This document shows, piece by piece, positions 7,348 to 26,472 of a stretch of DNA of 26,472 bases. The notes under the pieces were generated by a model. That model was given only the letters and a program-made list of their open reading frames with translations. It did not search any database and was not told the origin of the DNA. Positions within the stretch are counted from its first letter, which is position 1. Every line of letters begins with the position of its first letter. Source of the DNA: a virus (taxonomy: Duplodnaviria > Heunggongvirae > Uroviricota > Caudoviricetes); IMG/VR virus record IMGVR_UViG_2630968705_000016. The stretch is one strand, 5' to 3'. Made by a program: the position numbers and the translations under genes.

Positions 7348-7364
7348 TTCAAACATCTCCCCAA

Positions 7365-7450: not shown

Positions 7451-7512
7451 TACGGTCAGATGGGGGTACTTATGGGGGTATTTGCTGTTCGGTTTAGTGG
7501 AGGTACCCCCAA

Positions 7513-9789: not shown

Positions 9790-9801
9790 CGGAGACTGAA
9801 A

Positions 9802-10635: not shown

Positions 10636-10807
10636 GCCGACAGGAACACCACAACCTCAAAAACGCTACAAAGATGCCCACGGAGCACTCGTTACTGTCG
10701 AAAGCGTGTCTCACAACCGAGTGACGTTTTATCGCGACGGGTATCAATCGCCATGCGTACAACCGCTGGCGCGTTTCATGAAGGAGTTCGCGGAGGTTAA
10801 CCAATGA
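10628..10807 (+). CDS. Small hypothetical protein (59 aa), possibly DUF4222-like
   Basis: ATG at 10628 overlaps the upstream stop (ATGTTTAA). Sequence MFKPTGTPQPQKRYKDAHGALVTVESVSHNRVTFYRDGYQSPCVQPLARFMKEFAEV. Confidence 0.45.
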   Translation: MFKPTGTPQPQKRYKDAHGALVTVESVSHNRVTFYRDGYQSPCVQPLARFMKEFAEVNQ

Positions 10808-11241
10808 TACCCATCCAGAAGAAGACATTTTCACTGGCTGGTATGTCGCCAAAATCCAGAAATATGACGGCAAAGTCAGGCATTAATACAGCAGATACAA
10901 GCAAAGTTTATCATTTGCTGGTGGCCGGAACGGATGCCTTAACCATACCAGAAATCTCGGGCGATGATATTAGCCTTGAGAAGGTCAGCGGCTGCGCCAG
11001 AAAATTTCTGGTCGTAGATGATGTCTTCCGCTCGTGTAGTGACTCCACAAAAACATTCGTCCACGCGCGTGACGTTAACGAAATGAGCGCGATGTACTGT
11101 GCTTCTGGTTCTTCCAATAGTGAGTTTTCGGAGTCCATAAAAAAGAGCTTGCCGTTATGCGGCAACACGGTTTATGGTTATAAGGCACCTCATAAAACGG
11201 GTGCCGGGTTTCGCAGCCCGGAAATGTACGAGGCGACACAT

Positions 11242-11263
11242 GACGCGCCGAGCGTCTTTTTTT
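11242..11263 (+). terminator. Rho-independent terminator-like hairpin plus T7 run
   Basis: GACGC-GCCGA-GCGTC hairpin (11242-11256) followed by TTTTTTT (11257-11263). Lies inside the annotated 355-aa ORF 10804-11871. Confidence 0.5.
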
Positions 11264-11465
11264 GTGCCGTTAGCCAGACTCACACTTTTTTCAGTGATGT
11301 GGTTATAATCCGCGTCGCTTGCAAAATTATGGTGGGCTGGACAGGGCAGCCGAAAGGCTGGCCGGTTTCCTTGTACGCCGGTACTGCGAACTCTGTTCAG
11401 TCCACCACCAGCGAGTTTCGCAGCTCCGGTGGTGGGAAGAATTCCCAGTACAAGGAGGCTGCCAC

Positions 11466-11660
11466 ATGCTGGCTACTACCCCTACCCAAAAACCGCAATT
11501 TATCTGGATTATCGCCGCAGTTCGCCGCGATTGCCCGACAATTACCGCCAAAATTCATCATATTGCTGCCGAGTCTGAACGCGATGCTCGCCGTTCTCTG
11601 GTGCGCGATCACGTCTGCTTTTTTGCTGGTCGTATCCGCATGGAGGTGGCACATGATTAA
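11466..11660 (+). CDS. Small hypothetical protein (64 aa)
   Basis: ATG preceded by AAGGAGG RBS; codon usage (ctg, gcc, cgc) is much more gene-like than the overlapping frame of the long ORF. MLATTPTQKPQFIWIIAAVRRDCPTITAKIHH... Confidence 0.55.
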   Translation: MLATTPTQKPQFIWIIAAVRRDCPTITAKIHHIAAESERDARRSLVRDHVCFFAGRIRMEVAHD

Positions 11661-11871
11661 AACCTACGATGTGCATATGGATCCCCTCGAACGCACAAGC
11701 CAGATCATCACACTGACAGAAGTGATTAACGACATTCTGGTGAGCAACTCTCCCTCACGAGACGAAAGACTGAAGGCGTTACTCGCGATATTGGATCTCG
11801 CCGTTCGTGACGTTCATTTCCTGCTGGAAGGTGGCGAAATGCCAGGAAAAACGGGGGCAACCAATGAATAA
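11655..11871 (+). CDS. Small hypothetical protein (72 aa)
   Basis: Internal ATG of the long ORF with GGAGGTGG RBS; overlaps the upstream stop (ATGATTAA). MIKTYDVHMDPLERTSQIITLTEVINDIL... Confidence 0.5.
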
Positions 11872-12058
11872 CTCAATTAATGCCCCTCGACTTACGTCCG
11901 CACTTCAATTAATCGAGCAAGCAGCGGCTGTCCTGGTTGCTGTCAGTCTTTCGGCTGAAGAAATGGACGCTGCTGATGTCGTGGATGCGATTAAAGCGTG
12001 CTCATCTTTGGTTAACGATGCTCGTGCAGAGCTGGTAATTCTTGGTGGTGAAAAATGA
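11864..12058 (+). CDS. Small hypothetical protein (64 aa)
   Basis: ATG at 11864 overlapping the upstream stop; MNNSINAPRLTSALQLIEQAAAVLVAV... The track ORF begins further upstream at 11807. Confidence 0.5.
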   Translation: MNNSINAPRLTSALQLIEQAAAVLVAVSLSAEEMDAADVVDAIKACSSLVNDARAELVILGGEK

Positions 12059-12318
12059 ATATCAACTTAATTTATCGTCATCCGTGTGAGCTGGAAATTG
12101 AATCATTGCTGAGCCGTGAAGAGCCATATCCAGACACATTCACTCTTGCAGATCGCACGACTGAACGGCTTACCAGGGCGCGCACAGGTCTGGTTCATGT
12201 GATGAATGAGATTCTTCCATCGGTGGGAGGGGAACAGGCGACAGTAATCACTAGCTGGCTACAAAAAGTTACCTCTCTGATAGATATCAGTTTAATCGAT
12301 GCGGAGAGTGCGAAATGA
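12055..12318 (+). CDS. Small hypothetical protein (87 aa)
   Basis: Start overlaps upstream stop (ATGA); part of a coupled run of small genes. Confidence 0.55.
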   Translation: MNINLIYRHPCELEIESLLSREEPYPDTFTLADRTTERLTRARTGLVHVMNEILPSVGGEQATVITSWLQKVTSLIDISLIDAESAK

Positions 12319-12536
12319 CCAACATCCAGCTCATTGAAGCACAATGTCGCATCGAACAGGTTCAGACTGTTTTAGGGTTCTGGCTTGAAGGGGCCAGCCC
12401 CAGCAACAGAGACAAGTTAATGATTGGCGCGGTTATGTCACTGCTCAATGGCGTACCAGAAGCTATTCAGGAAGCAGACGAATTGTTGGGCAAATATGAG
12501 TTACAGAATCATTCAGGCGAGGCGAAACATGAATAA
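12315..12536 (+). CDS. Small hypothetical protein (73 aa)
   Basis: ATGA overlap with the upstream gene; same operon. Confidence 0.55.
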   Translation: MTNIQLIEAQCRIEQVQTVLGFWLEGASPSNRDKLMIGAVMSLLNGVPEAIQEADELLGKYELQNHSGEAKHE

Positions 12537-13131
12537 TTTCTTAACTTTCCATGCAGAAGCAACGCCTGACGGCGTAAACATCATGTACCGCAGCAACGAT
12601 GGCATGACAGAACGCGTTGAGGCCGTCTCATATATTGATGCCGTAAATCGTCTGGATGCCGGGGATTATGACGATAAACCAGATGAAGGTATGTCAATAC
12701 ATCTCGCTATAGCCGATGGCGGCAACCAGGGATATTTCGATTACACATCACAGCATAACGTCATTATGTGGAGATGGCTGATCGCAACAGTATTCATGCT
12801 GGAAATGAGAGAGGAAAACGGCACTGTCAGCATCATTGATGATACTGGCAACCCTTCCGAAGTGGCTGTTTATTCCAACGGCATCGTCGCCATGCCGCTG
12901 TATCCAGTAGCAGAGCGCCTCGCTATGGCAAACAACATTGAGGGCGCGATGATAGAACGTTTTGGCATCGAGTCTGGCACAGAACGCGCCATCATTTTCT
13001 ACAGAGCCATGATGGATGTGGAACAAGGAGCACTGACTCCATTTGGTCGTGAAACGCTTGCTGAACTTCACAACAGCTTTATAGCTGAACTGAATGAAAA
13101 CGGCATGCCAGCGGAACCAGTGACGCACTGA
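12526..13131 (+). CDS. Hypothetical protein (201 aa)
   Basis: ATG at 12526 overlapping the upstream stop (ATGAATAA). The track ORF begins upstream at 12424, but that would overlap the previous gene out of frame. Confidence 0.6.
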   Translation, partial: NMNNFLTFHAEATPDGVNIMYRSNDGMTERVEAVSYIDAVNRLDAGDYDDKPDEGMSIHLAIADGGNQGYFDYTSQHNVIMWRWLIATVFMLEMREENGTVSIIDDTGNPSEVAVYSNGIVAMPLYPVAERLAMANNIEGAMIERFGIESGTERAIIFYRAMMDVEQGALTPFGRETLAELHNSFIAELNENGMPAEPVTH

Positions 13132-13141
13132 GGATGGAACC

Positions 13142-13483
13142 ATGATTACTAAAAATTTCCGACTGAATGCGCTGGCAAATAAGTATGCGTCGGCACTGTA
13201 TAACCACATTACCTCCACCAGCGGCGGGGACTATTTCATGGTTGATGCGGACGGCGAGGCCGTCCGTGTGGAAATCGTCAATGGAGTAAAAGGCGTTCGC
13301 AGCCTGATCGATAGCTACACACTGGCAGCCATGAAAGTGTTCTACCCGCAGTGGGAAACCGTGGGGATCGAGCTTCTTGATCGTTGCGTCACTAAGGACG
13401 GATTGACTGACGTCGGGCGTGAGATATGGCAAAGCATGGTTAATGACATGGGCGCAACTGTAGCGGGAGGTTCTCATGCGTGA
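13142..13483 (+). CDS. Hypothetical protein (113 aa)
   Basis: ORF with GAGGATGG context upstream; the stop overlaps the next start. Confidence 0.6.
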   Translation: MITKNFRLNALANKYASALYNHITSTSGGDYFMVDADGEAVRVEIVNGVKGVRSLIDSYTLAAMKVFYPQWETVGIELLDRCVTKDGLTDVGREIWQSMVNDMGATVAGGSHA

Positions 13484-13847
13484 AAATGCAGAAATGGCGC
13501 TTAGCTCCGCAATCGGAGAGCAGGTGGCAAAGATTGCTGGTGCTGTGTGGATTCATAACCTTCATTCTACTGGTGAAGAGAAAATGGCAATTCAGACGCC
13601 AGAGGGACGCATCATTACTACATCTCTGAAGCCGTCAGATGTTTGTGATCTGATTTGCGCATTCATGTACCCAGCAATGAGGACTGCCCACGGCGATAAG
13701 TGGAAACTTGCGACAACCGCTGAATTTGATATGTGGCTAAACAATGATGGCATGCTGACTGATTACGGAATAACCAAGTGGCAGATGCTGGTTAGCCATA
13801 TCGCAAACGCTATAGACCACGTGGGGTACGGTGATGCGAAACATTGA
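13476..13847 (+). CDS. Hypothetical protein (123 aa)
   Basis: ORF with GGGAGG RBS upstream; 3' end overlaps the primase start. Confidence 0.6.
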   Translation: MRENAEMALSSAIGEQVAKIAGAVWIHNLHSTGEEKMAIQTPEGRIITTSLKPSDVCDLICAFMYPAMRTAHGDKWKLATTAEFDMWLNNDGMLTDYGITKWQMLVSHIANAIDHVGYGDAKH

Positions 13848-16590
13848 TCTTATCCGTCAGGTTATCAGTGCGTCTGAAAACAACTGGCCTCATGTGCTGG
13901 GCTGCCTGAACATAAATGTCCCTGACTCTCCGCGCCGTCATGCTCCCTGCCCTGCATGTGGGGGCAAAGATCGATTCCGGTTCGATGACAACGGGCGCGG
14001 TAGCTTCATCTGTAATCAGTGCGGCGCTGGTGATGGGCTGGATTTAATTAAACGCGTAAATAACTGCGACACAACAGAGGCGGCGCTTCTTGCCGCTGAT
14101 GTTCTGGGTATTGATTACCGGACAACGGAAACACCAGAAGCCACCAGCCAGAAACGGGAACAACTGGAAACCGAGCGCCAGCGACGCGAACAGGAGCGCC
14201 TGAAAAGGGCAGAGAAGGACGAACAACAAAGACGGGATACGTTTTCCCGTCAGTTTGATGACATGCGCAGAAAGGCTGTAAACGGCAAATCTGATTATCT
14301 GGTTGCGAAAGTGGTAGGTGATTTTACATTCCCCGTGTTGCCCGATGGATCTCTGTTGCTGGCGCTGGTGGATAAATCCGGCGCAGTCACAGCAGCACAG
14401 ACTATTACCTCACATGGTGAAAAAAGACTCCTGACAGGTTCAGCAAAGCGGGGGGCATATCACGCCATAAACGCACCAGAAACAACACAGAGCATCTTAA
14501 TCGCAGAAGGGCTGGCAACGGCATTATCTGCCCATTTAATTCGTCCAGAGGCGCTGACAGTGGCGGCGATTGATGCCGGGAACCTGTTATATGTCGCCCA
14601 GGTACTGCGGGATAAATATCCTTCAGCACAAATCATCATTGCTGCGGATAACGACCACAGCGAAGGAAGACAAAACACGGGGAGAATAGCAGCAGAAAAA
14701 GCAGCTTTATCTGTTTCTGGATGGGTGGCATTACCCCCGACAGATCACAAAGCAGACTGGAATGATTACCACCAAAAACACGGCATTAAATGCGCCACAG
14801 AAGCGTTCAATAAGTCAATGTACCAACCACAGGGTAATGGCGTGAAACAGGAGCCACAGACCATTGAGGGAAGCGATTTTAAGGTTATGGATACCGACCC
14901 ACTGAAACCAAGAATAGAAAGCCGCGAGGATGGTATTTATTGGGTATCTCCGAGAGCTGACAGCCAGAGTGGAGAAATCATCAATAACGAAAGCTGGTTA
15001 TGTTCTCCGTTAAGCGTTATCGGTACTGGCAGAGACGATAAAGACCAGTATCTCATTCTTCGCTGGCTGTCGTTTGGTTCTGAAACGCCGACAACCGCTG
15101 CCATTCCACTGGCTGATATTGGTGAACGTGAAGGATGGCGCACACTTAAAGCTGGTGGGGTAAATGTCACGACCAAAAGCAGCCTCAGAGCAATACTGGC
15201 AGACTGGCTACAACGCAGTGGCTCTCGTGAATTGTGGCGTGTTGCTCATGCCACTGGCTGGCAATGCGGAGCGTACATCATGCCTGATGGGGAAATCATC
15301 GGAACACCTGAAAATCCTGTGCTGTTCAGCGGGAGAAGCTCAGCCGCAGCCGGATATACCGTCTCAGGGAGCGCGAAAAGCTGGCGTGATAACGTGGCGC
15401 GTCTGGCCTTTGGTAACTATTCAATGATGACCGGGATCGGCGCAGCACTGGCAGCGCCATTGATTGGGCTGGTGGGCGCTGACGGGTTCGGCATTCATTT
15501 CTATGAGCAGTCGAGCGCAGGTAAGACCACCACGGCAAACGTGGCGAGCAGCTTATACGGCAACCCTGATTTACTGCGGCTGACGTGGTACGGAACCGCG
15601 CTGGGGCTGGCAAATGAGGCCGCCGCCCACAATGACGGACTAATGCCGCTTGATGAAGTTGGTCAGGGCGCTGATCCTGTCAGCGTTTCACAGTCTGCCT
15701 ATGCGTTATTTAACGGTGTAGGGAAACTGCAAGGCGCTAAAGATGGTGGAAACCGGGATCTAAAACGTTGGCGTACAGTGGCAATCAGCACCGGAGAAAT
15801 GGATTTAGAAACATTTATCGCTACTTCCGGGCGAAAAACCAAAGCCGGGCAACTGGTGCGACTGCTGAATATTCCGTTGAGTAAAGCAGTACGCTTTCAC
15901 GATTACCAGAACGGAAAACAGCACGCAGACGCACTGAAAGACGCTTACCAGCATCACCACGGCGCGTCCGGGCGTGAGTGGATTAAATGGCTGGCAGACC
16001 ACCAGCAACAGGCTATTAAAACCGTTCGTGATTGCGAAAGCAGATGGAGAAGCCTGATCCCATCCGATTATGGTGAGCAGGTTCACCGTGTAGCCGCGCG
16101 ATTTGCCATTCTGGAGGCCGCATTGTTGTTAGGCGAGGTTGTAACAGGCTGGGATGCTCAGACATGCCGTGATGCGATACAGCACAGCTATAACGCATGG
16201 TTGCGTGAGTTCGGCACAGGTAACAAAGAGCATCAGCAGATTATTGAACAAACGGAGGCATTTCTTAATGCCTATGGGCTTAGCCGTTTTGCACCATTTT
16301 CATACAGCCCGGCAGATTTGCCCATCAAAGATTTAGCCGGATACCGTCAGCGTGGAGAACATGACGAAAGCCCAATGATTTTCTACACATTCCCGGCCAC
16401 ATTTGAAAAGGAGATCGCATGTGGTTTCAACGCAAAACAGTTTGCTGAAGTGTTGAAAAAAGCCGGGATGCTAACCCCACCAAACAGCGGTCGTGGATAC
16501 CAAAGAAAATCACCACGTATTCAGGGACGACAAATAAACGTTTATGTACTCAATTACCAGCCAGGAGATTATAACTCATCTGAAGAATGA
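13831..16590 (+). CDS. Primase-helicase (P4 alpha-like: zinc ribbon + Toprim primase + P-loop helicase)
   Basis: 919 aa. CPACGG...FICNQCG zinc-binding motif; Toprim-like AEGLATA and IIIAADNDHSEG (DxD); Walker A SSAGKTTT and Walker B-like LMPLDEV. Start could be the GTG at 13831 or the ATG at 13834. Confidence 0.9.
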   Translation: MMRNIDLIRQVISASENNWPHVLGCLNINVPDSPRRHAPCPACGGKDRFRFDDNGRGSFICNQCGAGDGLDLIKRVNNCDTTEAALLAADVLGIDYRTTETPEATSQKREQLETERQRREQERLKRAEKDEQQRRDTFSRQFDDMRRKAVNGKSDYLVAKVVGDFTFPVLPDGSLLLALVDKSGAVTAAQTITSHGEKRLLTGSAKRGAYHAINAPETTQSILIAEGLATALSAHLIRPEALTVAAIDAGNLLYVAQVLRDKYPSAQIIIAADNDHSEGRQNTGRIAAEKAALSVSGWVALPPTDHKADWNDYHQKHGIKCATEAFNKSMYQPQGNGVKQEPQTIEGSDFKVMDTDPLKPRIESREDGIYWVSPRADSQSGEIINNESWLCSPLSVIGTGRDDKDQYLILRWLSFGSETPTTAAIPLADIGEREGWRTLKAGGVNVTTKSSLRAILADWLQRSGSRELWRVAHATGWQCGAYIMPDGEIIGTPENPVLFSGRSSAAAGYTVSGSAKSWRDNVARLAFGNYSMMTGIGAALAAPLIGLVGADGFGIHFYEQSSAGKTTTANVASSLYGNPDLLRLTWYGTALGLANEAAAHNDGLMPLDEVGQGADPVSVSQSAYALFNGVGKLQGAKDGGNRDLKRWRTVAISTGEMDLETFIATSGRKTKAGQLVRLLNIPLSKAVRFHDYQNGKQHADALKDAYQHHHGASGREWIKWLADHQQQAIKTVRDCESRWRSLIPSDYGEQVHRVAARFAILEAALLLGEVVTGWDAQTCRDAIQHSYNAWLREFGTGNKEHQQIIEQTEAFLNAYGLSRFAPFSYSPADLPIKDLAGYRQRGEHDESPMIFYTFPATFEKEIACGFNAKQFAEVLKKAGMLTPPNSGRGYQRKSPRIQGRQINVYVLNYQPGDYNSSEE

Positions 16591-16615
16591 GCTTCTTCAT
16601 GTGCGTAGAAAAGGT

Positions 16616-16726
16616 GTTGGTTCAGTTGGTTCAGTTGGTTCAATTTGTAAAGAGTATTGTTTTATAATGATTTTATTCTTTTTATTGAACCAACACTGAA
16701 CCAACAACACGGTATTTTGAACCAAC
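16616..16726. repeat. Iteron cluster 1 (putative replication origin)
   Basis: Three perfect tandem GTTGGTTCA 9-mers (16616-16642), an AT-rich spacer, then three TGAACCAAC inverted copies (16686-16694, 16697-16705, 16718-16726). Begins 26 bp after the primase stop. Confidence 0.75.
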
Positions 16727-17046
16727 ACAATGTGACTGAATTGATGCGCACAACACCTGGCTGGCATCAGAGAGTGTTTTACGAGACTTTCGTAAAATCC
16801 TGTGTACAAGGGCGTGACGTTTTTGAAAGTGAGCACTACGAAATTTTCGTAGTTCAAAAAACAGCCTCTGAGAAGTTGTTATGCCTGTTCAGCAAACCAT
16901 CCGCATAGCTGATCGCGAATCAAATTACCAATGGAGCCAGAAGCAAGGGCAGAACTGAAAAGCGCCTGCCGTGAAGAGTAATGCGACACCATAAATATAG
17001 TTTTTAGAGTCCATAAAAAACCTGTCAAAACCTGACACACAGAACG

Positions 17047-17080
17047 ATGCCACCAGCTACTGAGCGGTGGCATTTTTTTG
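17047..17080 (+). terminator. Rho-independent terminator
   Basis: Perfect 8-bp stem ATGCCACC/GGTGGCAT with an 11-nt loop, followed by TTTTTTT (17074-17080). Confidence 0.7.
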
Positions 17081-17174
17081 TGCTATTTGTTTCATATTTT
17101 GCAATTACGATGATGAATATTGCGATTTGTGAAACTATAATAACTGTTGTTTTATACAGTTCTAAGGGGGCGTT

Positions 17175-17336
17175 ATGGCTATTTCAGTAAAGCCGGTATT
17201 GATAAGTGAGAAGCAAATGGAAGCGATAAAGAAAATTCAGGAAGAGCAGCGTAAAAAATCAGGAATTGGAGTAGCGCCAACTCTGCATGAAATTGCACGA
17301 GGGTTAATAGATAAGGCGCTGGCAGGCTGTATGTGA
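17175..17336 (+). CDS. Small hypothetical protein (53 aa), possible DNA-binding regulator
   Basis: Strong RBS AAGGGGG 5 nt upstream of ATG; MAISVKPVLISEKQMEAIKKIQEEQRKK... Not on the ORF track because it is under 60 aa. Confidence 0.5.
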   Translation: MAISVKPVLISEKQMEAIKKIQEEQRKKSGIGVAPTLHEIARGLIDKALAGCM

Positions 17337-17352
17337 AAATGGATGGCATCGC

Positions 17353-17814
17353 ATGGAACTAAAATTTATTGATAACCCTGTGCGATTACAGGCCTTTCTT
17401 AACGAGCCAGGCAATACCGAAAATATTGTTGAGCCGGGGCACACGTACTACATCAAGCCTGATGCGGTATATCTCGGCATCTACGAAGGATTAGTGCTGG
17501 CTGGCGTTCATGAAGTGCGTAACTTCTGGCATAGCGTTGTTGAATGCCATGCGGTGTACGACCCCGGATTCCGTGGTGAATATGCACTGCAAGGGCATCG
17601 ATTATTCTGCAAATGGCTTCTCGAAAACTCACCATTCCTTAACAGCATTACCATGGTTCCTGACACCACCAAATACGGACGGGCAATTATCCGTTTGCTT
17701 GGCGCTACCCGTGTTGGTCACCTTGATGATGCTTATATCAGATGTGGTAAACCCGTCGGCGTAACGCTTTATCAGTTAACTCGGCAACAATATAAGGAAT
17801 TCAGCGAATGTTAA
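17353..17814 (+). CDS. Hypothetical protein (153 aa), first gene of the ejection-like cassette
   Basis: ORF coupled to the downstream gene (ATGTTAA overlap); no domain recognised. Confidence 0.7.
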   Translation: MELKFIDNPVRLQAFLNEPGNTENIVEPGHTYYIKPDAVYLGIYEGLVLAGVHEVRNFWHSVVECHAVYDPGFRGEYALQGHRLFCKWLLENSPFLNSITMVPDTTKYGRAIIRLLGATRVGHLDDAYIRCGKPVGVTLYQLTRQQYKEFSEC

Positions 17815-18485
17815 TTACCCACATAGCTCATAAACATCTCAATCGTGCCGTATACGAAAAAGGCGGTGATGGTGGTGCCTCTAAAGCTCAGGCGAAGGCC
17901 CAGCAGCAGGCAATTGATTTGCAGCGCGAGCAGTGGAATACGGTGATGAATAATCTCAAGCCGTATGCAGAAGTCGGATTGCCTGCTTTACAACAACTAC
18001 AAGGACTGATGACTCTGGAAGGGCAGAATAAAGCCGCGAATGATTTCTTTGGTTCTGGTTTATATAAAACACAGGCAGATCAGGCCCGTTATCAGAACCT
18101 TGTCTCAGCAGAAGCTACCGGGGGGCTTGGCTCAACAGCTACCAGTAACCAGTTATCTTCCATTGCGCCCATGCTTTATAACAATTGGCTCAGTGGGCAA
18201 ATGCAAAATTATGGAAACCTGCTAAATGTCGGGATGAATGCGGCATCAGGGCAGGCAACGGCAGGGCAAAACTACGCCAATAATACCGGACAACTCTTGC
18301 AGGGGCTTGGCGCTATTCGTGCAGGTCAGGCGCAGCAGCCATCCAGTCTTGCGCGTGGTATTGGTGGGGCAGCATCAGGCGCTTTAGCGGGTGCGCAACT
18401 TGGTTCCGTTGTTCCTGGAATAGGAACTGCGGCCGGCGCTATTGGTGGTGGGCTTATTGGTCTTGTTGGGGGGCTTGGATTCTAA
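17808..18485 (+). CDS. Hypothetical protein with glycine-zipper-like C-terminus (225 aa), internal-virion/ejection-like
   Basis: Q/A/N/G-rich; C-terminal GIGGAASGALAGAQLGSVVPGIGTAAGAIGGGLIGLVGGLGF suggests a membrane-inserting glycine zipper. Coupled to flanking genes. Confidence 0.75.
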   Translation: MLITHIAHKHLNRAVYEKGGDGGASKAQAKAQQQAIDLQREQWNTVMNNLKPYAEVGLPALQQLQGLMTLEGQNKAANDFFGSGLYKTQADQARYQNLVSAEATGGLGSTATSNQLSSIAPMLYNNWLSGQMQNYGNLLNVGMNAASGQATAGQNYANNTGQLLQGLGAIRAGQAQQPSSLARGIGGAASGALAGAQLGSVVPGIGTAAGAIGGGLIGLVGGLGF

Positions 18486-19804
18486 TGGCGACATGGCAAC
18501 TTGGCGGGCTGCCTAGCATGGCACCGCAAAATGATAATGCTCCTCGTTCTTCCGTTCCTCAGCCTGTGCAGTATCAGCAGCAGCCAAACGTAGGTTTAAT
18601 GGCGCTACAGGGGCTAAGAGGCGTTGCTGAGATTAATCAGCAGGCGCAAATTTCCCAGCAGTTAAAAGAATATCAGGCACGGTTGGGTAGTGCGGTAGCT
18701 AATAATGATCGTGTTGGCGTGCAGAAGTTAATGGCCCAGTATCCCCAGTTTATGGCTGATTCTCAAAAACAGATGGGATTCATTGATGCTGAGCAAAATC
18801 GACAGACCGCTGACGCTGCCATGAATCTGCGTCTTGCGTCACAAACTGGAGATCCACTGACCATGCAGAAGGCCATTCAGCAGGCAAATCCAGTATTACA
18901 GCGATTTGGTCTTCCTGCTGAAGAGGTTTATCAGTCTTGGCAGAATGACCCACAGGAATTCAACAGAATCACTGACCTCATCCACCTCCATGCTGATCCA
19001 AATAGTTACTTTAGTGTTCAAGAGAAGCAGCAAGGGCAGAGCATTGCACAGCAGAACGCAGATACATCCGCATATAATGCTCAGGTTAATGCGGAACAGG
19101 GTAATCGACGTCTCGATATGGAGCAGTTCAAAGTCCTATCCGATAACCAACTACGCACGAGAGAAATGGTTCTGAAAGCACGACTTGGACGTGCTCAAAA
19201 TGACATCGAGAGAGACAAGCTCAATGCTGAACTGAGCAAGATACAGCAGGCGAAAGTGGAGAAGATGAACGATAAAATTAATACTGTTGCAGGTAACATC
19301 GACTCCTTGAACTCTGCGCTTGAAGTGGGTCATGAACTGGCGGGAATTGTAGGGAAACATCCTTCGGCCGTTACCCGCTCGCAGAACTATAACCCCCTGA
19401 CGCTGGGGTTTGGATTCCTTCCTGATGTAGCAGAAGACACACGAAGCCTACGCGCCAAAGCTGATGAATACAACCTAAAGGTTATTCTGCCTAGCCTCAA
19501 AGGGACTTTTGGCTCTAACCCAACCGAAGGGGAAAGGGCTGCCCTTATGCAATCTCAAAATGGCATTAAGTCAGCAACCAGCAATGAGGCATTTTTGCGA
19601 GAGTTGAATAAAGCGCAGGACGTAATTATTCGAATGCAGAAACGACAGATTGCCGGGCTCGGTATTCCTGTAACCAAATCTAAGGACGAAGAAACTGATA
19701 CCAAAATGCTGTTGCAGGATCCTTCACTGGTTAAGGATTATGTGACCGCACATGGCTATCTGCCGGAAAGTTACTATCAGGCAAAACTTAAGGGATGGCA
19801 ATGA
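18485..19804 (+). CDS. Hypothetical Q-rich protein (439 aa), internal-virion/ejection-like
   Basis: Start overlaps the upstream stop (TAATG); low-complexity Q/N/A-rich composition typical of phage internal core proteins. Confidence 0.8.
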   Translation: MATWQLGGLPSMAPQNDNAPRSSVPQPVQYQQQPNVGLMALQGLRGVAEINQQAQISQQLKEYQARLGSAVANNDRVGVQKLMAQYPQFMADSQKQMGFIDAEQNRQTADAAMNLRLASQTGDPLTMQKAIQQANPVLQRFGLPAEEVYQSWQNDPQEFNRITDLIHLHADPNSYFSVQEKQQGQSIAQQNADTSAYNAQVNAEQGNRRLDMEQFKVLSDNQLRTREMVLKARLGRAQNDIERDKLNAELSKIQQAKVEKMNDKINTVAGNIDSLNSALEVGHELAGIVGKHPSAVTRSQNYNPLTLGFGFLPDVAEDTRSLRAKADEYNLKVILPSLKGTFGSNPTEGERAALMQSQNGIKSATSNEAFLRELNKAQDVIIRMQKRQIAGLGIPVTKSKDEETDTKMLLQDPSLVKDYVTAHGYLPESYYQAKLKGWQ

Positions 19805-22521
19805 TGGCACAACTGACAGAAAAACAGAAAGCCTATTCCCGTCATCTCGATGAAAAATATGGTTTCCCATCAGGGACGATGGAAACATTAGTTGGCAATG
19901 AATCTAGTGGTAACGGAAGTGCCGAGTCACCGAAAGGAGCTAGAGGATTTGCTCAACTGATGCCCTCAGTAATGAGTGATGCTGGTTATCGTGGAACAGA
20001 TCCGCGCTCACTGCCATTTGAAAAGCAAATGGATATCGCAGCAAACCATCTCAATAAAGGAATGAAGCGATTTGGTGATATAGGTATGGCATTGGCTGGG
20101 TATAATTCTGGCTATGCTCGTATTAATGCCGTCAGAAACGGTAAATCTACACTGCCAGATGAAACGGCTAATTACGTAAGTAAATTTGCAGATGCCGGAA
20201 TAATCCCTGATGACAGTGAAATCTTGCAGTTTGCACAAACCAGTCAACATCGCAATCTTCAGCAGCCTGACTACTCAGAGCTTGATAAAGAAATCTCTCA
20301 GGTGGGAGATATTTCTGCATGGGAAGCAAAACGTCAGCAATTTAAGAACATAGAAGCAGGACTACCAACAGCCAGTTCATGGGAGCAGAAAAGAGCTCAG
20401 TTTCTCGCCGATGAAAATGCCGGGGAACCGCAGCAGCAAGTAGCCAAGTCTAACCTTAATCCTGAGATGGAATATCTTTCGCCAGGACTGAAAGCTGCGC
20501 CAGAGCAGATGGCCAGAGGGATTGCTAATATACCGTTTGATGTAATGGACGCAGGCGTGGGGGTAGTCAATGCGGCGCAATCAGCCGGAGCATGGGCAGC
20601 TCAGAAGCTTGGTGTGGGTGATGGCACATACACGCCCATATCACCTGTCTTTCGCCCAGTAGACCAACCTACAGATCCATACGCGCAGGCTGGTGAGCAG
20701 CTAGCACCTTACCTTATTACAGGATTAGGTGTAGGAAAGGCAGCTACCGCAGCTTCTTCAGTTGCCAACGCTCCACGTGCTGAACGTGCGGCCACAAAGG
20801 TGGCTAGTATGTTGGCAGAAAACCTGCCAGGTACATTGGTGAACGCCCAAAAGAACGGGCAGATCAGCCCAGAAGACCTAGCAAAAGAGACAGGTATTGG
20901 CCTAGCAGGATCGCTAGGAGCACGCGCTTTAATAAAGAGCGGACAGACAGCCAGTGACGTAATGCGAGATGTATTGCGGAGTAATACAAATCAATCAGGC
21001 CATGTGTTAGGGGCAGCAAATACTCTGGAAACCGCCAATGATGTATCGAAAGCAGCGCGTTCTGCCGTAGGCCGAGAGCATATCGCATCGCAGGCATCAA
21101 ACGTCAGAGATGATGTCGCTAAGGCGGCGAAAATCACTGGTATTAATATCAACACCCTGACGCCTGGAATGCGCTCAGGTAGTCGTGGAATTGCCCAAGC
21201 AGAAGGTGTTCTGGCATCAACTCCTGGGAATGTTCAGGATGCTCACCTTACGGCCTTCAATGAAATATCCTCAAAGTTGAATAAGCAGTTGTCTGATTTC
21301 GGTGCTGAGTCTGGAAGCGCATCAGAAAAAAGCGCAGCAATTAAAGAGCGCATCATCGCGAGCCTCAGTGATATGAAAACAGCAGAGAATATGGCATGGG
21401 CAGAACTGCGAAGCACGATGCCACGCGAAAGGATGAAAATGAGTAATGGGATGGCTGTCGTCCAAGCAGAAAAAGCAGCCAATGTTCCACTCAGCCCGGA
21501 GATGAAACAGTTTCAGGCTGCCAACAACCAAGGTGGCGGCATAACCTTCGACGGGATGAAGGCATGGCGTGCTAAGTTTGCTGATGCTGAACAAGCAAAC
21601 ACCCGGGCAGGTAAGGCCAATGCCGCCCGGATTGCCGGAGAAATGCGCAGAGCTATCACTGATGACATGCGCATCATGGCTGAAAAAGGAAACTTCCTCA
21701 CAGAATGGCAGAAAGCTAACGATCTCTCTAAAAGTTACATTATCGCCAAACAAAATGCCGAATCTGTTTTTGGTCGAGATCTCGCATCAGACGCTATGGT
21801 AAGAAAAGGTGCCGATACGCTTAAGGCATCCGCAAACACTGGAACGGGAGCTTTTCACCGTCTTATCTCCGCGCTGCCGGAAGCAGAACGCCAACCTGCA
21901 ATAGCATCTATTCTTCAGCATGCTGTGGCGCAGGGAGAGAAGGGAGGAATCGGTGAAGAGTCAGGTATCCAGTATTTTGCCAAGCTCATGACCCAGCAGA
22001 ATGTAAACGCCATCAGTCGTCATGCGCCAGATCTCGGTAGAATGATGAAAGAGTTCGGTGTACTCGCTAAAGCCAGTACCAGACCGCAGCGATACGTAGA
22101 GCGCACGGGAAGAACAACTGAGGCTCTCAAAACGCTCGATTCAGGCCTTCCAAAGATCGTCGGCGTGATTATGAACGGTGTTCAACAGTCAGGTGCGATC
22201 GCTGGAGGCTTTGGCGGTGGTGTAATTGGTTCGATTAGTGGTTTGGTTGCTGGTGGCGCGCTAAGAAATGCTGTGGCTAAGATTGGGGCGACAAGAAGTG
22301 GTCGATATGCGATAGAGAAAGCCGTTCAGGAAGCTACAAAAGCAGTGCGCGCAGGGGCATCACCAGCAGCGATCGCCGCAGCAGAGAAACGATTTTCGGC
22401 CAATAAAATTGCCATGAAAGCAATTCGTGATGCCGTTGGGGCTGAAGAATTCGTGAAACTGACAAGGGCCGGGATTGTAGCTACCCTCAGTGGCATGAAA
22501 GATGTTAGCGAATGGGAATAG
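19795..22521 (+). CDS. Large protein with N-terminal lytic transglycosylase (SLT) domain (908 aa), T7 gp16-like architecture
   Basis: N-terminal motifs ESSGN (catalytic Glu context), GFAQLMP and AGYNSGYA match SLT family signatures. The remainder is long and A/G/Q/S-rich with a glycine-rich segment (GAIAGGFGGGVIGSISGLVAGG) near the C-terminus. Confidence 0.88.
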   Translation: MAMMAQLTEKQKAYSRHLDEKYGFPSGTMETLVGNESSGNGSAESPKGARGFAQLMPSVMSDAGYRGTDPRSLPFEKQMDIAANHLNKGMKRFGDIGMALAGYNSGYARINAVRNGKSTLPDETANYVSKFADAGIIPDDSEILQFAQTSQHRNLQQPDYSELDKEISQVGDISAWEAKRQQFKNIEAGLPTASSWEQKRAQFLADENAGEPQQQVAKSNLNPEMEYLSPGLKAAPEQMARGIANIPFDVMDAGVGVVNAAQSAGAWAAQKLGVGDGTYTPISPVFRPVDQPTDPYAQAGEQLAPYLITGLGVGKAATAASSVANAPRAERAATKVASMLAENLPGTLVNAQKNGQISPEDLAKETGIGLAGSLGARALIKSGQTASDVMRDVLRSNTNQSGHVLGAANTLETANDVSKAARSAVGREHIASQASNVRDDVAKAAKITGININTLTPGMRSGSRGIAQAEGVLASTPGNVQDAHLTAFNEISSKLNKQLSDFGAESGSASEKSAAIKERIIASLSDMKTAENMAWAELRSTMPRERMKMSNGMAVVQAEKAANVPLSPEMKQFQAANNQGGGITFDGMKAWRAKFADAEQANTRAGKANAARIAGEMRRAITDDMRIMAEKGNFLTEWQKANDLSKSYIIAKQNAESVFGRDLASDAMVRKGADTLKASANTGTGAFHRLISALPEAERQPAIASILQHAVAQGEKGGIGEESGIQYFAKLMTQQNVNAISRHAPDLGRMMKEFGVLAKASTRPQRYVERTGRTTEALKTLDSGLPKIVGVIMNGVQQSGAIAGGFGGGVIGSISGLVAGGALRNAVAKIGATRSGRYAIEKAVQEATKAVRAGASPAAIAAAEKRFSANKIAMKAIRDAVGAEEFVKLTRAGIVATLSGMKDVSEWE

Positions 22522-22671
22522 ACGCTCTAACTAACAAAACCATAATAGCCAAGGACGGCATACTGATATTGAGCCAACTATCAAAATTCCATATCACATT
22601 ACGAGCCTGTGGCTTACATTCGCTTACAGTGATGATAATTTATAACCACGCAATTCTTAGGTGAGATTATC

Positions 22672-23370
22672 ATGATTAAAAATCTTCTTTTAATATTATC
22701 CCTGTCATTATTGGCTGGATGCGTACAAAAACCGTTAGTAACGGTCAATGCTTTATCTTCCGGGCAATCTGTCGGTAAGAAGTTCTTGATCATCCCCGCA
22801 AGCCAAGAACTTTGGAACACCAAACAGATTGAATACACTCAAATAGCTACGGTAGTAGCCGCCAGTTTATCAAGCCAAGGATATACACAAGTTAAAGATG
22901 AAAAATTGGCTGACCAGGTAATTCTCTTGAACTTTTTGAGAAGTGGGGCCATTTCAAATACTCGTAATGTAACCATCCCAATATACGGGCAAACTGGTGT
23001 GAGCTCAGCAACAACGTACGGAAACTCGAACACCACGTTCAATAGTTATGGTGGTGGCTACGGTACAGCTAATACCACTGGAACGGCAACAACAGTTTAT
23101 ACGCCTACTTATGGAATTACTGGCGCGTATAACACAACTGTGACGGACACGTTCTACGGCGCAGGGGTGATACTCCAGTCGTTTGATGCCAAGGCTTATC
23201 TCAATAATCGGCAGATTAATATGTTATGGAAAGTTGGTAGCTCAGTCGTCTCGCAACAGTCTGATGGAATTGCTGATTACAAAGGGTTGGCGAGAATAGC
23301 CGCTAGCTATGCCGGGAAAAATACAGAAGGTGATATAACTTTTAATGTTGACCCTAAAGCACCAAATTAA
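22672..23370 (+). CDS. Putative lipoprotein (232 aa)
   Basis: Signal peptide with lipobox LLAG|C; AGGTGAG RBS; T/G/N/Y-rich central region; lower GC than neighbours. Confidence 0.8.
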   Translation: MIKNLLLILSLSLLAGCVQKPLVTVNALSSGQSVGKKFLIIPASQELWNTKQIEYTQIATVVAASLSSQGYTQVKDEKLADQVILLNFLRSGAISNTRNVTIPIYGQTGVSSATTYGNSNTTFNSYGGGYGTANTTGTATTVYTPTYGITGAYNTTVTDTFYGAGVILQSFDAKAYLNNRQINMLWKVGSSVVSQQSDGIADYKGLARIAASYAGKNTEGDITFNVDPKAPN

Positions 23371-23377
23371 CTAATAA

Positions 23378-23427
23378 GCCCGGTACGCCGGGCATTCATG
23401 CCCCTATTATTCATGAATCGCTTTTTC
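23378..23427 (+). terminator. Terminator-like tandem hairpins downstream of the lipoprotein gene
   Basis: GCCCGG-TACG-CCGGGC hairpin (23378-23393), then ATTCATG...CATGAAT hairpin (23394-23418), followed by CGCTTTTTC. Confidence 0.4.
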
Positions 23428-23584
23428 TGGAAGGTATGCGACAAACGTTAAGTGACATTGCCTACACATTCGGGGCTCAAATCCGCTCCCAGTTGATGGG
23501 GCCGTTACAGTACGCGCATATCCGCTTTATGTGAAACAGGAAGATTTTTCTGATATCACTGCCACAGCAAAACACCAATTTCGA

Positions 23585-23600
23585 GACAAGTACGCGCGCG
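23585..23600. repeat. GACAAGTACGCGCGCG motif, copy 1
   Basis: Exact 16-mer with an alternating (CG) tract; a degenerate copy (GACCAGTACGCACACG) follows at about 23638-23653. Confidence 0.6.
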
Positions 23601-23870
23601 AGGGGTATCAGTTGCAAAATTTTTTGCAACTGCGTCCGACCAGTACGCACACGATGGCGGGGGATACCATAAAAGTGTTCTCTACATGAGACAGAGTGGT
23701 GGTGATGTGTTGATTATCGGCGTATATGCGCACAGGACGCGCTATGACAATGTTTTATGCGGGTACACCAATCACATGTATCTGACGTGATAAATCGCGT
23801 TACATGACATCTCATGTTGTGCTGGTGGTTATCACGACGTTCTGAATCTGGCCTTTGCCTGATATTTTGC

Positions 23871-23886
23871 GACAAGTACGCGCGCG
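23871..23886. repeat. GACAAGTACGCGCGCG motif, copy 2
   Basis: Exact 16-mer in the context ATTTTGCGACAAGTACGCGCGCGTAGCATC. Confidence 0.6.
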
Positions 23887-23914
23887 TAGCATCGACAGCA
23901 TACACATTGGATAT

Positions 23915-24136
23915 TCATTTTGTGACCAATGCGATAAGTAGCGGGATAAGAATTGATAAAATCAACAGGCCGATGATCCACTTTTGATTTTCACTGGCCT
24001 TATCTCTATTTTCATCAATCTTATCAATAATTCGACGCTCCAGGCCGTGCATATCACCGCGAATGGCAATCATCTCATTGCGAACATCCGAGAAGTGGTT
24101 GGCTTGATGTTCAATGTGTGGCGTTCTGCCTTTCAT
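23915..24136 (-). CDS. Small putative membrane protein (73 aa)
   Basis: AGGTGAGGA RBS on the minus strand; charged N-terminal region and C-terminal hydrophobic helix WIIGLLILSILIPLLIALV. Confidence 0.5.
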   Translation of the reverse strand: MKGRTPHIEHQANHFSDVRNEMIAIRGDMHGLERRIIDKIDENRDKASENQKWIIGLLILSILIPLLIALVTK

Positions 24137-24215
24137 TCCTGATCCTCACCTATCGTCACCACCTGCTGGTGTATAAAGGTATTGGCCCAAGCAGCTTTCC
24201 AATGGGCACTCATGT

Positions 24216-24671
24216 TTATACGCTGACCTTACAATCAATCACCGCTTTTAACTTTTCAGCATTGCTTCCCTGACGCTTCCACGCGCTGTAAATATCTTTA
24301 TCCCACGCTTTACCAGCTTTTGTTTGATAGCCTGCTTCATTGATCCGTTCAGCTATCACACGCCCATTATCAAATCCCTGTCGGATGGTATCGGCAATGA
24401 TCTTTATAACTGCCGTTTCGTTATATGGCTTTGGTGGGATGTTCGGCTTTCCGGCAATAAGCGACGCAGCAGCTTTTTCCATGCGCTCCACCAGCCCAAG
24501 CATTCGTGAATCAATAGACTTTTCCGGCTGTCCCAGCTTCATGCGAATCGCATCAACAAGCCAGGAGGTTTTATCCCCTCCAGAAGCGAGAACAGACCGA
24601 TTAAACTCATCCTGCAATTCAGATGGGATGCGGAACGCGACCAGATTAGATTTGCTCATTGCAAAGACCAT
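24216..24671 (-). CDS. Putative DNA-binding regulatory protein (RHH-like N-terminus), 147-151 aa
   Basis: N-terminus SNLVAFRIPSELQDEFNRSV...SWLVDAIRMKL has a beta-strand/helix/helix pattern; start is ATG at 24671 or 24659. Transcribed divergently from the PerC-like gene, with iteron cluster 2 between them. Confidence 0.65.
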   Translation of the reverse strand: MVFAMSKSNLVAFRIPSELQDEFNRSVLASGGDKTSWLVDAIRMKLGQPEKSIDSRMLGLVERMEKAAASLIAGKPNIPPKPYNETAVIKIIADTIRQGFDNGRVIAERINEAGYQTKAGKAWDKDIYSAWKRQGSNAEKLKAVIDCKVSV

Positions 24672-24773
24672 ATCAGTGAGTAATATCCATACAGTATATC
24701 ACTGTATAACACTGTTATACGCTCAAATATCAGCCAGAAAATAACGGGCCAATCACAAAGCTATCGCTGTGTT

Positions 24774-24894
24774 GTTGGTTCAGAGCTGGGCTGTGTTGGT
24801 TCAAAATGAGTTGATGTTGGTTCAATATTTTAGAAAAAACATAATAAAAACAACAATCTTTACAAATTGAACCAACTGAACCAACTGAACCAAC
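24774..24894. repeat. Iteron cluster 2 (inverted copy of cluster 1)
   Basis: GTTGGTTCA at 24774-24782, 24795-24803 and 24816-24824; AT-rich spacer; three tandem TGAACCAAC at 24868-24894. Its reverse complement aligns with cluster 1, with about 45 bp identical at the tandem end. Confidence 0.75.
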
Positions 24895-24930
24895 ACCTTT
24901 TTGCTTATCTATATAATCTGAGAGGCAGAA

Positions 24931-25212
24931 ATGATAAGGGACAGGAAAGCTGAAGAGCTGGAGTCAAAAGGGCTATACCGGAGAGCTGCCGCACGATGGA
25001 TGGAAGTCATGCTGTTATGCAGCGAGGACGATGATCGGGAATGGATAAAGCGCCGCCGTGAAACGTGTCTGGAGAACGTGAAGCGCCCGCCCGTGAAGGT
25101 TGAGGAATTTGGCGACCTGCATAAAGCTGTTACCGAAACGCAACACCGCATGGGGATAGCGCAACCGAACGGTAACGCCTTCCGGTTAAATGGCGGTAAG
25201 AGGCAAAGGTAG
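24931..25212 (+). CDS. PerC-family transcriptional activator-like protein (93 aa)
   Basis: GAGAGG RBS; MIRDRKAEELESKGLYRRAAARWMEVM... matches my recollection of the PerC/Pch N-terminal signature. Confidence 0.7.
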   Translation: MIRDRKAEELESKGLYRRAAARWMEVMLLCSEDDDREWIKRRRETCLENVKRPPVKVEEFGDLHKAVTETQHRMGIAQPNGNAFRLNGGKRQR

Positions 25213-25260
25213 ACCACCAGAGGGAAATCATCCTCTGGCTGGCGGTTTCTGGTATTTCGG

Positions 25261-25278
25261 GACAAGTACGCGCGCGCG
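25261..25278. repeat. GACAAGTACGCGCGCG motif, copy 3 (one extra CG unit)
   Basis: GACAAGTACGCGCGCGCG in the context TATTTCGGGACAAGTACGCGCGCGCGTAGCACC, sharing about 30 bp of context with copy 2. Confidence 0.6.
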
Positions 25279-25509
25279 TAGCACCCAATCGGTGAGGAAA
25301 TAGCGGCGACCTGAATGGTCAAAATCACAACGCAGCTATCCCCGTAAGCAGCGCTTAACGGAATAGCAGTAACCTGAATCCAGTGGGGAGGGGGTAGTCA
25401 AATCTCTACAGCCCTGACTATCCGGGACTGCCCGCCCCATCGTTTTTTTATACCCGCGAAAAATGAAATTTAATCCGGGCGTGTTTCATCCTTCCAGAGG
25501 GTATGACGT

Positions 25510-25695
25510 ATGACACCACGCGAAATAGCTTTATTGACCACCGCCAAACTGGAGCACGAAGGCCACCAGCTAACCCCGGCAGATCAACGGGAGATAGAAC
25601 GCTCAGTTAATGCCAATATAGCCCGGCGTGACAAATTTCGCGAAATGATGCGATCACCCGCCTACCAGTGGAAGAAGCCTGCGCCGCGCAGGTAG
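25510..25695 (+). CDS. Small hypothetical protein (61 aa)
   Basis: ORF with AGAGGG upstream; basic protein; no domain recognised. Confidence 0.45.
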   Translation: MTPREIALLTTAKLEHEGHQLTPADQREIERSVNANIARRDKFREMMRSPAYQWKKPAPRR

Positions 25696-26016
25696 ATTAC
25701 CTTTATTCACCTTTATATATTCGAACAACAAAACCTCTCGCAGGTCTCGCCAATAAAGGGATATAGCAGTAACTATGACCGCCGAATGGCAAAGCTACGA
25801 TGCAAGTCGCTGGTTTCCAAACTTGAGGTTTCCAGGACGGTTTCAACCAAATTGCGGATTATCAGCCAAACGCACCGGGTATCTTGCGCGGTGGATGGTG
25901 AGCCATCACGCAGAATCTTTAAATGGCATTTTACGATGGGCAATACCCGTGGTTATATGCGATTATTAACGGTAGTGGACAGTTATAGACGAAAACATAC
26001 GGCAGGAGATTGGATA

Positions 26017-26472
26017 ATGGCAGTTACAACCCTTAACAGCGTAGCGGATTACCTGCTTTGCTTTGCTCAAGAGCATGGGGATGTTATGACGCCGCTGAAA
26101 CTGCAAAAAATGGTGTTCTATGCTGATGCTTGGTTCATGGCGCTGAATGATGGCGAAGAACTGGTTGCTGACAAGTTTGAAGCATGGGTACATGGCCCTG
26201 TAGCCAGAGATTTGTATACCAGATTTGCAGATTACAAATGGCGCTCAATAGACGAAGAGATTGCCTGCCCTGAGTTACCTGCGAATGTGTCAAAGCATCT
26301 AAAGGAAATCTATGAGGTATTTGGCGGTTATACAGCTTATGAGCTGGAGCAGATGACGCACCAAGAAAAGCCGTGGCTGGAGGCCCGTGAAGGGGTTCCA
26401 TCAGATGCGCCGTGCAAGAATGTTATTGATAAAAGTGTAACGGCTGAGTTTTATCGTTCGATGGCTTCCTAA
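26017..26472 (+). CDS. Panacea/DUF4065-domain protein (SocA-like phage-associated antitoxin family), 151 aa
   Basis: AGGAGA RBS 8 nt upstream of ATG at 26017; LKLQKMVFYADAWFMALNDGEELVADKFEAWVHGPV resembles the DUF4065 core. The longer track ORF from 25786 has an implausible N-terminal extension. Confidence 0.7.
   Translation: MAVTTLNSVADYLLCFAQEHGDVMTPLKLQKMVFYADAWFMALNDGEELVADKFEAWVHGPVARDLYTRFADYKWRSIDEEIACPELPANVSKHLKEIYEVFGGYTAYELEQMTHQEKPWLEAREGVPSDAPCKNVIDKSVTAEFYRSMAS

Follow-up and report, generated by a model that had tools for sequence, protein, structure and literature searches.

Probable distal junction of an EcCIMP1-type island of Escherichia coli: an inverted second origin copy between the rhh147 and perC-family genes

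The stretch of DNA analysed here, referred to as the window, comprises 26,472 nt (IMG/VR virus record IMGVR_UViG_2630968705_000016), and the segment of interest covers positions 24216-25212. The segment contains a minus-strand gene named rhh147, a cluster of short repeats (iterons) and a plus-strand gene of the perC family. It is probably the distal junction of a phage-inducible chromosomal island (PICI) of the EcCIMP1 type at tRNA-Thr, and would consist of three separable units, an autoregulated rhh147, a second copy of the predicted origin of the island and perC, rather than one divergent module. The island type is already known from EcCIMP1. The inverted second origin, and the family of proteins combining a ribbon-helix-helix (RHH) domain and a recombinase-type helix-turn-helix (HTH) domain with a covarying operator, are undescribed as far as could be found. 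A preliminary description made from the sequence had placed the iteron cluster (24773-24895) between two divergent genes, and the open reading frames (ORFs) 24216-24671 and 24931-25212 are indeed present on its two sides. The principal features are listed below.

24216-24659, minus strand: rhh147, 147 amino acids (aa), starting MSKSN; start taken from RefSeq and from an alignment of 32 homologues
Within rhh147: predicted RHH domain at residues ~1-45, a linker helix, and putative recombinase-type HTH domain at residues ~78-135
24692-24721, minus strand: predicted operator-promoter region of rhh147, made up of three 10-bp units in tandem (24712-24721, 24702-24711 and 24692-24701)
24773-24824, plus strand: second origin, spaced arm with three TGTTGGTTCA iterons at 21-bp spacing
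24825-24867, no strand assigned: second origin, spacer of 43 bp, 86% A+T, matching the PICI origin layout (PMC6092414)
24868-24895, minus strand: second origin, tight arm with three contiguous inverted iterons at 9-bp spacing
24931-25212, plus strand: perC-family gene, 93 aa (Pfam PF06069, phrog_994), an allele of EcCIMP1_025
13831-16590, plus strand: primase-helicase of TOPRIM/DUF927 type (phrog_1139, E=4e-178; RefSeq annotation)
16615-16727, plus strand: first origin copy, with a tight arm of three iterons, then 43 bp of spacer (86% A+T), then a spaced arm of three iterons

Chromosomes of avian pathogenic E. coli (APEC) O78:H51 match the window with 100% identity, and a match to the region is found in 676 of 5426 complete E. 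coli genomes. In the annotation of the best match, an island of ~21 kb is inserted at tRNA-Thr after proA. Its gene order is integrase, AlpA-type HTH protein, AntA/AntB antirepressor, ash-family protein and TOPRIM/DUF927 primase-helicase, followed by P22-like DNA-ejection genes, a lipoprotein gene, rhh147, perC and a gene for a Panacea-domain protein. Direct comparison with the MP1 chromosome gave an identity of 98.8% between window 7302-23895 (16.6 kb) and EcCIMP1 of E. coli MP1, and of 95.5% for window 24773-25697. The two islands occupy the same site, tRNA-Thr between proA and yagU, and have the same attachment site (att) core; the core published for EcCIMP1, TCCTATTATC, is found at window 7331-7340. 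The int, alpA, antA/B, primase-helicase and P22-like ejection genes all lie inside the 98.8%-identical stretch, and both iteron clusters are present in EcCIMP1 as they are in the window. The elements by which a PICI is recognized, namely int, alpA, a primase module and a specific att site, are all found in the window. Excision and transduction of EcCIMP1, itself a PICI, depend on the helper phage Kapi1 (Pick, Stadel & Raivio, ISME J 2025; PMC11773190). The paper makes no mention of iterons or of an origin (PMC11773190). The two islands differ in one section, where EcCIMP1 has 1.24 kb with alpA_1 and an orf61-like gene and the window has 23896-24772. Judged by these comparisons, the window represents an EcCIMP1-type PICI in which a different accessory cassette is present.

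The iteron TGTTGGTTCA, with no more than one mismatch, occurs 12 times in the window; the mean for shuffled sequences is 2.24, and none of 100 shuffles reached 12. All 12 copies are confined to two clusters, 16615-16727 and 24773-24895. The first begins 25 bp past the stop codon of the primase-helicase gene, while the second, with six copies, is located within the 271-bp gap between rhh147 and perC. In Gram-negative PICIs the origin consists of two sets of iterons around an AT-rich region directly after pri-rep, as validated for EcCICFT073 (Fillol-Salom et al. 2018, PMC6092414). This layout, three iterons on either side of a 43-nt spacer with 86% A+T, is observed in both clusters of the window. 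Only cluster 1 lies immediately downstream of pri-rep; cluster 2 is found 8.2 kb downstream of the primase gene and is inverted. When the reverse complement of cluster 2 is compared with cluster 1, 101 of 110 positions are identical (92%), flanks and spacer included. The cluster at 24773-24895 is, on this comparison, a complete inverted second copy of the predicted origin of the island, in which the AT-rich spacer would be the melting region.

The primase-helicase is the presumed initiator. Its C-terminal 139 aa covary with the iteron type of the island (loci L027, L029, L034, L040, L045 and L050). In the Morganella and Proteus islands using GTTGGTTCA this segment is 68% identical to that of the window, and in islands using AGTGTGTCA or other repeats the identity is 38-42%. 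L050, whose iteron is a near variant, gives 50%. In both iteron groups the primase and helicase parts of the protein are equally diverged (46-49% and 47-59%). The covariation speaks for the C-terminal domain of the primase-helicase as the part that binds the iterons, and the last 139 aa are likely to be the origin-recognition domain, which would also bind the iterons of cluster 2. The earlier proposal that the iterons belong to the replication system of the island is supported by the two clusters, by their relation as inverted origin copies and by the covariation of the primase C-terminus.

Among the 49 related loci from other species that were used as the comparison set, the iteron of the window is found again in Klebsiella, Serratia, Pantoea, Erwinia, Rosenbergiella, Cedecea, Morganella and Proteus. 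Two arrangements of the two clusters are seen across these genera. They are either dispersed, the first following the primase gene and the second lying upstream of rhh147, or adjacent, both after the primase gene; in many loci both clusters adjoin the primase gene and none is near rhh147. The genes on the tight side of cluster 2 vary from island to island. Homology of its flank reaches ~25 bp past the tight arm in distant genera. A compact form is presented by the circular record NZ_CP148430.1 (locus L055; 12,152 bp), which contains primase, cluster 1, rhh147, cluster 2, perC and int, with the two clusters 1.8 kb apart. This record was deposited as a non-mobilizable E. coli plasmid; it represents a minimal EcCIMP1-like island, including antA/B and an Icd-like gene and without the module of ejection genes, and the satellite may be present here in an excised form or in one that replicates autonomously. 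In Pantoea coffeiphila (locus L010, 9721-12300) a unit of 1251 bp, consisting of an iteron cluster, rhh147 and an orf61-like gene, is tandemly duplicated, so that two identical copies of rhh147 and three iteron clusters are present. The orf61 family (phrog_7271) is a small conserved gene found at window 25510-25695 (plus strand) and at 10931-11149 (minus strand) of locus L053. It recurs beside rhh147 or an iteron cluster in many islands, and EcCIMP1 has two paralogues, one of them within the cassette that replaces rhh147.

The section in which the window departs from EcCIMP1 is a cassette of 877 bp, 23896-24772, which contains a gene for a 73-aa membrane protein, rhh147 and the operator, and has no counterpart in EcCIMP1. 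The breakpoint between the two islands falls exactly at the first iteron, at 24772/24773. Two more features belong to this section.

23915-24136, minus strand: gene for a 73-aa tail-anchored small membrane protein (phrog_6324, E=3e-11; weak match to a holin family)
23871-23886, plus strand: junction motif GACAAGTACGCGCGCG, 16 nt, ending 9 nt before the EcCIMP1 breakpoint

The membrane gene is located downstream of rhh147 in the same orientation. At least 80% of the cassette is found in 166 of the 5426 E. coli genomes, and ~200 E. coli genomes match the rhh147 part only. The membrane protein was considered as a conserved partner of rhh147 and was rejected, as it is found beside rhh147 in none of the 49 loci of other species. 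Exact copies of the junction motif GACAAGTACGCGCGCG are present on the same strand at 23585-23600, 23871-23886 and 25261-25276, and a degenerate copy is present at 23638-23653; only 0.1 matches are expected by chance even with up to three mismatches. The exact copies are located after the lipoprotein gene, just before the breakpoint and 49 nt past the perC stop codon. Within the motif there is a palindrome of alternating C and G, TACGCGCGCGTA. EcCIMP1 likewise has three copies of the motif, and islands of Serratia fonticola have it in the interval from the second iteron cluster to the rhh operator. The motif may serve for recombination or for binding of a regulator. The configuration suggests that rhh147 and the membrane gene form an exchangeable cassette, which would be bounded by the junction motif and by the edge of the iteron cluster.

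The longest ORF of rhh147 (24216-24671, minus strand) codes for 151 aa. In the predicted structure, for which the N-terminal alignment was made from trimmed database proteins, the N-terminus adopts the beta-alpha-alpha fold of ~45 residues that is typical of the RHH superfamily, and this domain matches the antitoxins RelB, MazE and VapB. The term RHH-like, given to the protein earlier, is supported by this predicted fold and not by the sequence models, since no match to the Pfam RHH families was obtained even at E<=10. Comparison with the sequences of the PDB, using the single protein and a profile, gave nothing meaningful, and no significant family was found for the protein in Pfam and NCBIfam. 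A homologue is named 'Arc-like DNA binding domain protein' in one public source. The database contains 371 homologues (E<=0.001), mostly from Enterobacterales including Morganellaceae, with a few from metagenome bins; 50,697 phage records contain none, and plasmids have almost none.

The C-terminal domain of rhh147 resembles the HTH of recombinases. Direct comparison with Pfam gave matches below the threshold to HTH_62 (PF20552) in 28 of 32 members (best E=0.013) and to Recombinase (PF07508) in 15 of 32. A profile of the domain, run against 1.84 billion proteins, reaches proteins that contain Recombinase or HTH_62 domains, including a serine recombinase, with E-values of 1e-4 to 1e-5. The core motif DNGRxIAERxNEAGYQTKxGKAWDKDIYSAWKR is invariant across islands with GTTGGTTCA, AGTGTGTCA, ACGGGATAA and GTCGGTTCA iterons. 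Binding of the iterons by this domain was considered and rejected, as the domain does not change across these four iteron types. The HTH, which is nearly invariant between genera, presumably binds a conserved DNA site or a protein partner other than the iterons.

Upstream of rhh147, positions 24704-24720 form a perfect palindrome of 17 bp, GTATAAC-N3-GTTATAC, which is found nowhere else in the window. An extended -10 element is found on the minus strand, with TG at 24700-24701 and TATACT at 24693-24698. The third 10-bp unit of the operator contains the -10, and NZ_CP148430.1 has no third unit. The same layout is observed in 45 of 46 loci: two 9-bp TGTnnnACA subsites, 10 bp apart, are followed after 1-2 nt by the extended -10 TGnTAnAAT. 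It is important to note that the type of operator corresponds to the residues of the N-terminal beta-strand. In 24 of 25 loci the strand SNL[VI]AFR pairs with the 17-bp palindrome, of the form TGTATAACA-N-TGTTATACR, and the strand SLSVTFR pairs with direct TGTCTTACR (GTCTTAC) repeats in all 21 loci. No cross cases occur among the 45 loci, which fall in two clades. This layout, together with the covariation, which is a correlation across two clades, is the signature expected of an autoregulating RHH repressor. RHH dimers of rhh147 would bind the tandem TGTnnnACA subsites 10 bp apart; the subsites abut and overlap the extended -10 of rhh147, so that binding would repress its transcription. The direct repeats CACTGT(A/T)TA, suggested earlier as operator sites at about 24698-24718, are real and form part of the conserved predicted operator. 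Another description of the repeat is more fitting: CACTGTWTA matches only once there, and CACTGTATA (24700-24708) and CACTGTTATA (24710-24719) are non-identical, both lying within the three tandem units.

Membership of the 93-aa product in the PerC family, as proposed earlier, is confirmed. The match to Pfam PF06069 scores 106.1 bits (gathering cut-off 22.6) with E=1.2e-30, residues 1-85 aligning with positions 1-85 of the 90 in the model, and the match to phrog_994 has E=6.7e-38. In a single comparison with PerC from plasmid pMAR2 of enteropathogenic E. coli (EPEC), the identity is 39% over 75 aa (E=3e-21). The description of this gene as an activator is not supported by its closest characterized relative. 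The product is identical to EcCIMP1_025 at 92 of 93 residues, with S31 in the window and T31 in EcCIMP1_025. When expressed in Citrobacter rodentium, EcCIMP1_025 caused dose-dependent silencing of LEE1-lux (LEE, locus of enterocyte effacement), while EPEC perC caused activation in the same assay (PMC11773190). As a hypothesis, Pick et al. proposed that EcCIMP1_025 behaves like a repressor of the ANR (AraC negative regulator) family and may thus bind AraC-family activators and/or H-NS (PMC11773190). The ANR model of NCBIfam, NF033650, matches residues 5-50 of the window protein with 31.1 bits and E=1.6e-7 over 46 of 54 model positions, a score just below the curated cut-off of 32. EPEC PerC, an activator, scores 18.2 bits with this model. 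As EPEC PerC also matches the ANR model, the ANR similarity is a relationship at the level of the family and is not diagnostic of function. The window protein has, by this comparison, a predicted ANR-like N-terminal part. Most hosts of this type of island are not known to carry LEE, and the native target of perC is therefore probably something other than LEE1. Genes of the PerC family are present in 286 records of plasmids and in 70 of phages. The usual place of perC in other genera is directly after the primase gene and the first origin, ~38 bp from the last iteron and kilobases from rhh147.

Some observations weigh against the reading of the segment as three separable units around a second origin. 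The silencing of LEE1 was seen under expression driven by isopropyl β-D-thiogalactopyranoside (IPTG) in a heterologous host (PMC11773190). The covariation of operator and strand residues separates two clades and may reflect one or few evolutionary events. In addition, a consensus sigma-70 scan of 23700-25800 gave no promoter for rhh147 or perC, and the promoter of rhh147 is predicted solely from its conservation. The sequence TATAAT at 24912-24917, the sole TATAAT upstream of perC, was considered as the -10 of this gene and rejected; it is located 13 nt from the ATG, over the ribosome-binding site, with no -35 at 17-19 nt. The preliminary description had instead proposed a promoter region shared with the iterons, in which replication control may be coupled to activation of a chromosomal virulence regulon such as LEE through a divergent RHH repressor and PerC activator. 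The genes are divergent with the iterons between them, the membership in the PerC family is solid, and perC lies ~38 bp from an iteron cluster in several relatives, so that occupancy by the initiator could in principle affect transcription of perC. Of the shared promoter region, the predicted promoter and operator of rhh147 do lie in the gap; the operator differs from the iterons and is separated from them by 52 bp, and the scan gave nothing for perC. EcCIMP1 has alpA_1 in place of the RHH cassette but retains the iterons and perC, an orthologue with 99% identity silences LEE1, and EcCIMP1-like islands are about equally frequent in commensal and pathogenic strains (PMC11773190). The divergent pair of rhh147 and perC is probably not a functional unit, given the breakpoint at the first iteron, the distance of the operator, the location of perC elsewhere in other genera and the variable genes on the tight side. 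Activation of LEE coupled to replication in this way is very unlikely, and the more general coupling of replication control to host regulation remains speculative because no perC promoter was found.

The other explanations concern the parts of the segment separately. If rhh147 were a regulator of replication acting through the second cluster, by control of copy number or handcuffing as for P4 Cnr or plasmid CopG, this might explain why, both in the window and in ~15 loci of several genera, an iteron cluster precedes rhh147 by ~70-110 bp, and why the Pantoea coffeiphila unit is duplicated together with its iterons; the protein also has two predicted DNA-binding domains. However, its operator is unrelated to the iteron sequence, its C-terminal motif does not follow the iteron type, many loci have no cluster near rhh147, and EcCIMP1, which is without rhh147, keeps both clusters and is still mobilized by its helper. 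Such a role appears highly improbable. The cassette could also be a toxin-antitoxin or abortive-infection system, with rhh147 as the RHH antitoxin-repressor and the 73-aa membrane protein as effector. RHH domains are typical of antitoxins, the co-oriented genes are swapped together, the membrane protein has its weak holin-family match, and most of the cassette recurs in the 166 E. coli genomes. Against this, the two genes are not found together in the 49 loci of other species, ~200 E. coli genomes have the rhh147 part only, PADLOC gave no match among the six neighbouring proteins, and the conserved C-terminal domain is a recombinase-type HTH and not a toxin-binding tail; there is little probability that this is the function of the pair. 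Finally, the second cluster might be functionless, left over as a scar where related islands recombined at their origins, and mark no more than the boundary of a module. The position of the breakpoint at the first iteron, the varying position of the second cluster (tandem or dispersed) and the different genes on its tight side in different islands would all be consistent with a scar. However, the six iterons and the 43-bp AT-rich spacer show no damage and share 92% identity with the first copy, the state with two clusters is kept across many genera and in the 12-kb minimal circular element, and the homology extends past the tight arm in distant genera. An inert scar is thus improbable. Since no part is damaged and the presence of two clusters is conserved, an additional initiation site, or a partner in cis of the first origin comparable to crr of phage P4, is favoured as the possible role of the second copy.

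A joint reading of the three units might also be proposed, in which the inverted origins cooperate, the second being crr-like, as an enhancer or further initiation site for the primase-helicase, and a boundary for cargo, the rhh147 operator is switched through three residues of the beta-strand, and occupancy by the initiator sets the level of a PerC/ANR-like silencer. In this combined form it is rather unlikely. If it were true, induction of the satellite would be linked to silencing of host genes through occupancy of the second origin and expression of perC.

Several other genes and elements of the window were observed outside the segment. Between the two origin copies, at 17353-22521 (plus strand), there are four co-oriented genes resembling P22-type head-completion and DNA-ejection proteins, with matches to DUF2824/phrog_651, phrog_598, a 'phage DNA ejection protein' and a lytic transglycosylase of 908 aa. 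According to Pick et al., the ejection-type proteins of EcCIMP1 are similar to proteins of the helper phage Kapi1 (PMC11773190). Rfam gave matches to isrK (69 bits) at 11185-11262 and to C4 antisense RNA (81 bits) at 11325-11412, both on the plus strand and inside the ORF of a 355-aa 'ash family protein' (10804-11871). The same region in EcCIMP1 is annotated as an ash pseudogene and an Icd-like gene. The island may have an RNA immunity module of the P1/P4 type beside the AntA/AntB gene. At the right end, window 25786-26472 (plus strand, truncated by the end of the window) codes for a protein with a Panacea (SocA-like antitoxin) domain; next to it in the reference genome come a hypothetical protein of 144 aa and a member of the pRiA4b ORF-3 family. 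These genes may represent toxin-antitoxin or defence cargo, and PADLOC found no defence system among six neighbouring proteins.

The duplicated inverted origin provides a testable handle on the replication and cargo exchange of the poorly understood 'type C' PICIs, and rhh147 offers a compact natural pair of operator and specificity variants, useful for studies of RHH-DNA recognition. This analysis also suggests that genes of the PerC family in E. coli islands are not to be annotated as activators of virulence, since the closest orthologue tested so far is a silencer. The family is spread over plasmids, phages and satellites, mostly in hosts that are not known to carry LEE.

It is important to compare these units with the systems that are already known. 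The protein rhh147 shares the predicted beta-alpha-alpha fold with the RHH repressors Arc, Mnt, CopG, AmrZ and the N-terminal domain of PutA. As in these repressors, the candidate operator consists of tandem subsites one helical turn apart at its own promoter, and the putative specificity residues are located in the N-terminal strand. The difference is the additional and more conserved putative HTH domain of recombinase type. The perC product resembles EPEC PerC and Pch of enterohaemorrhagic E. coli (EHEC) in its match to PF06069 over the full length and in its identity to PerC of pMAR2. However, a near-identical orthologue acts oppositely on LEE1, and the gene is located in a PICI beside an origin copy and not in a per operon or lambdoid prophage. 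The repressing phenotype of EcCIMP1_025 fits the ANR (Aar) family, although the protein of 93 aa is longer than the 54 positions of the model.

The satellite phage P4 has an ori and a crr, both bound by its alpha primase-helicase, and the iterons are bound by the C-terminal domain of alpha. The island of the window likewise has two separated clusters of one iteron on a small satellite replicon, and its initiator is also a fused primase-helicase in which the C-terminal part tracks the iteron specificity. The initiator of the island is of the TOPRIM/DUF927 type and is likened to alpha by layout, and sid, psu and delta are absent from the island. The closest resemblance of the origin is to those of Gram-negative PICIs such as EcCICFT073, in which, as here, sets of iterons flank an AT-rich region right after the pri-rep gene. 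In the window, however, this structure is found twice, and the second copy is inverted. Its distance from the primase gene is 8 kb in the window and 1.8 kb in the 12-kb relative, while in other genera it is directly adjacent.

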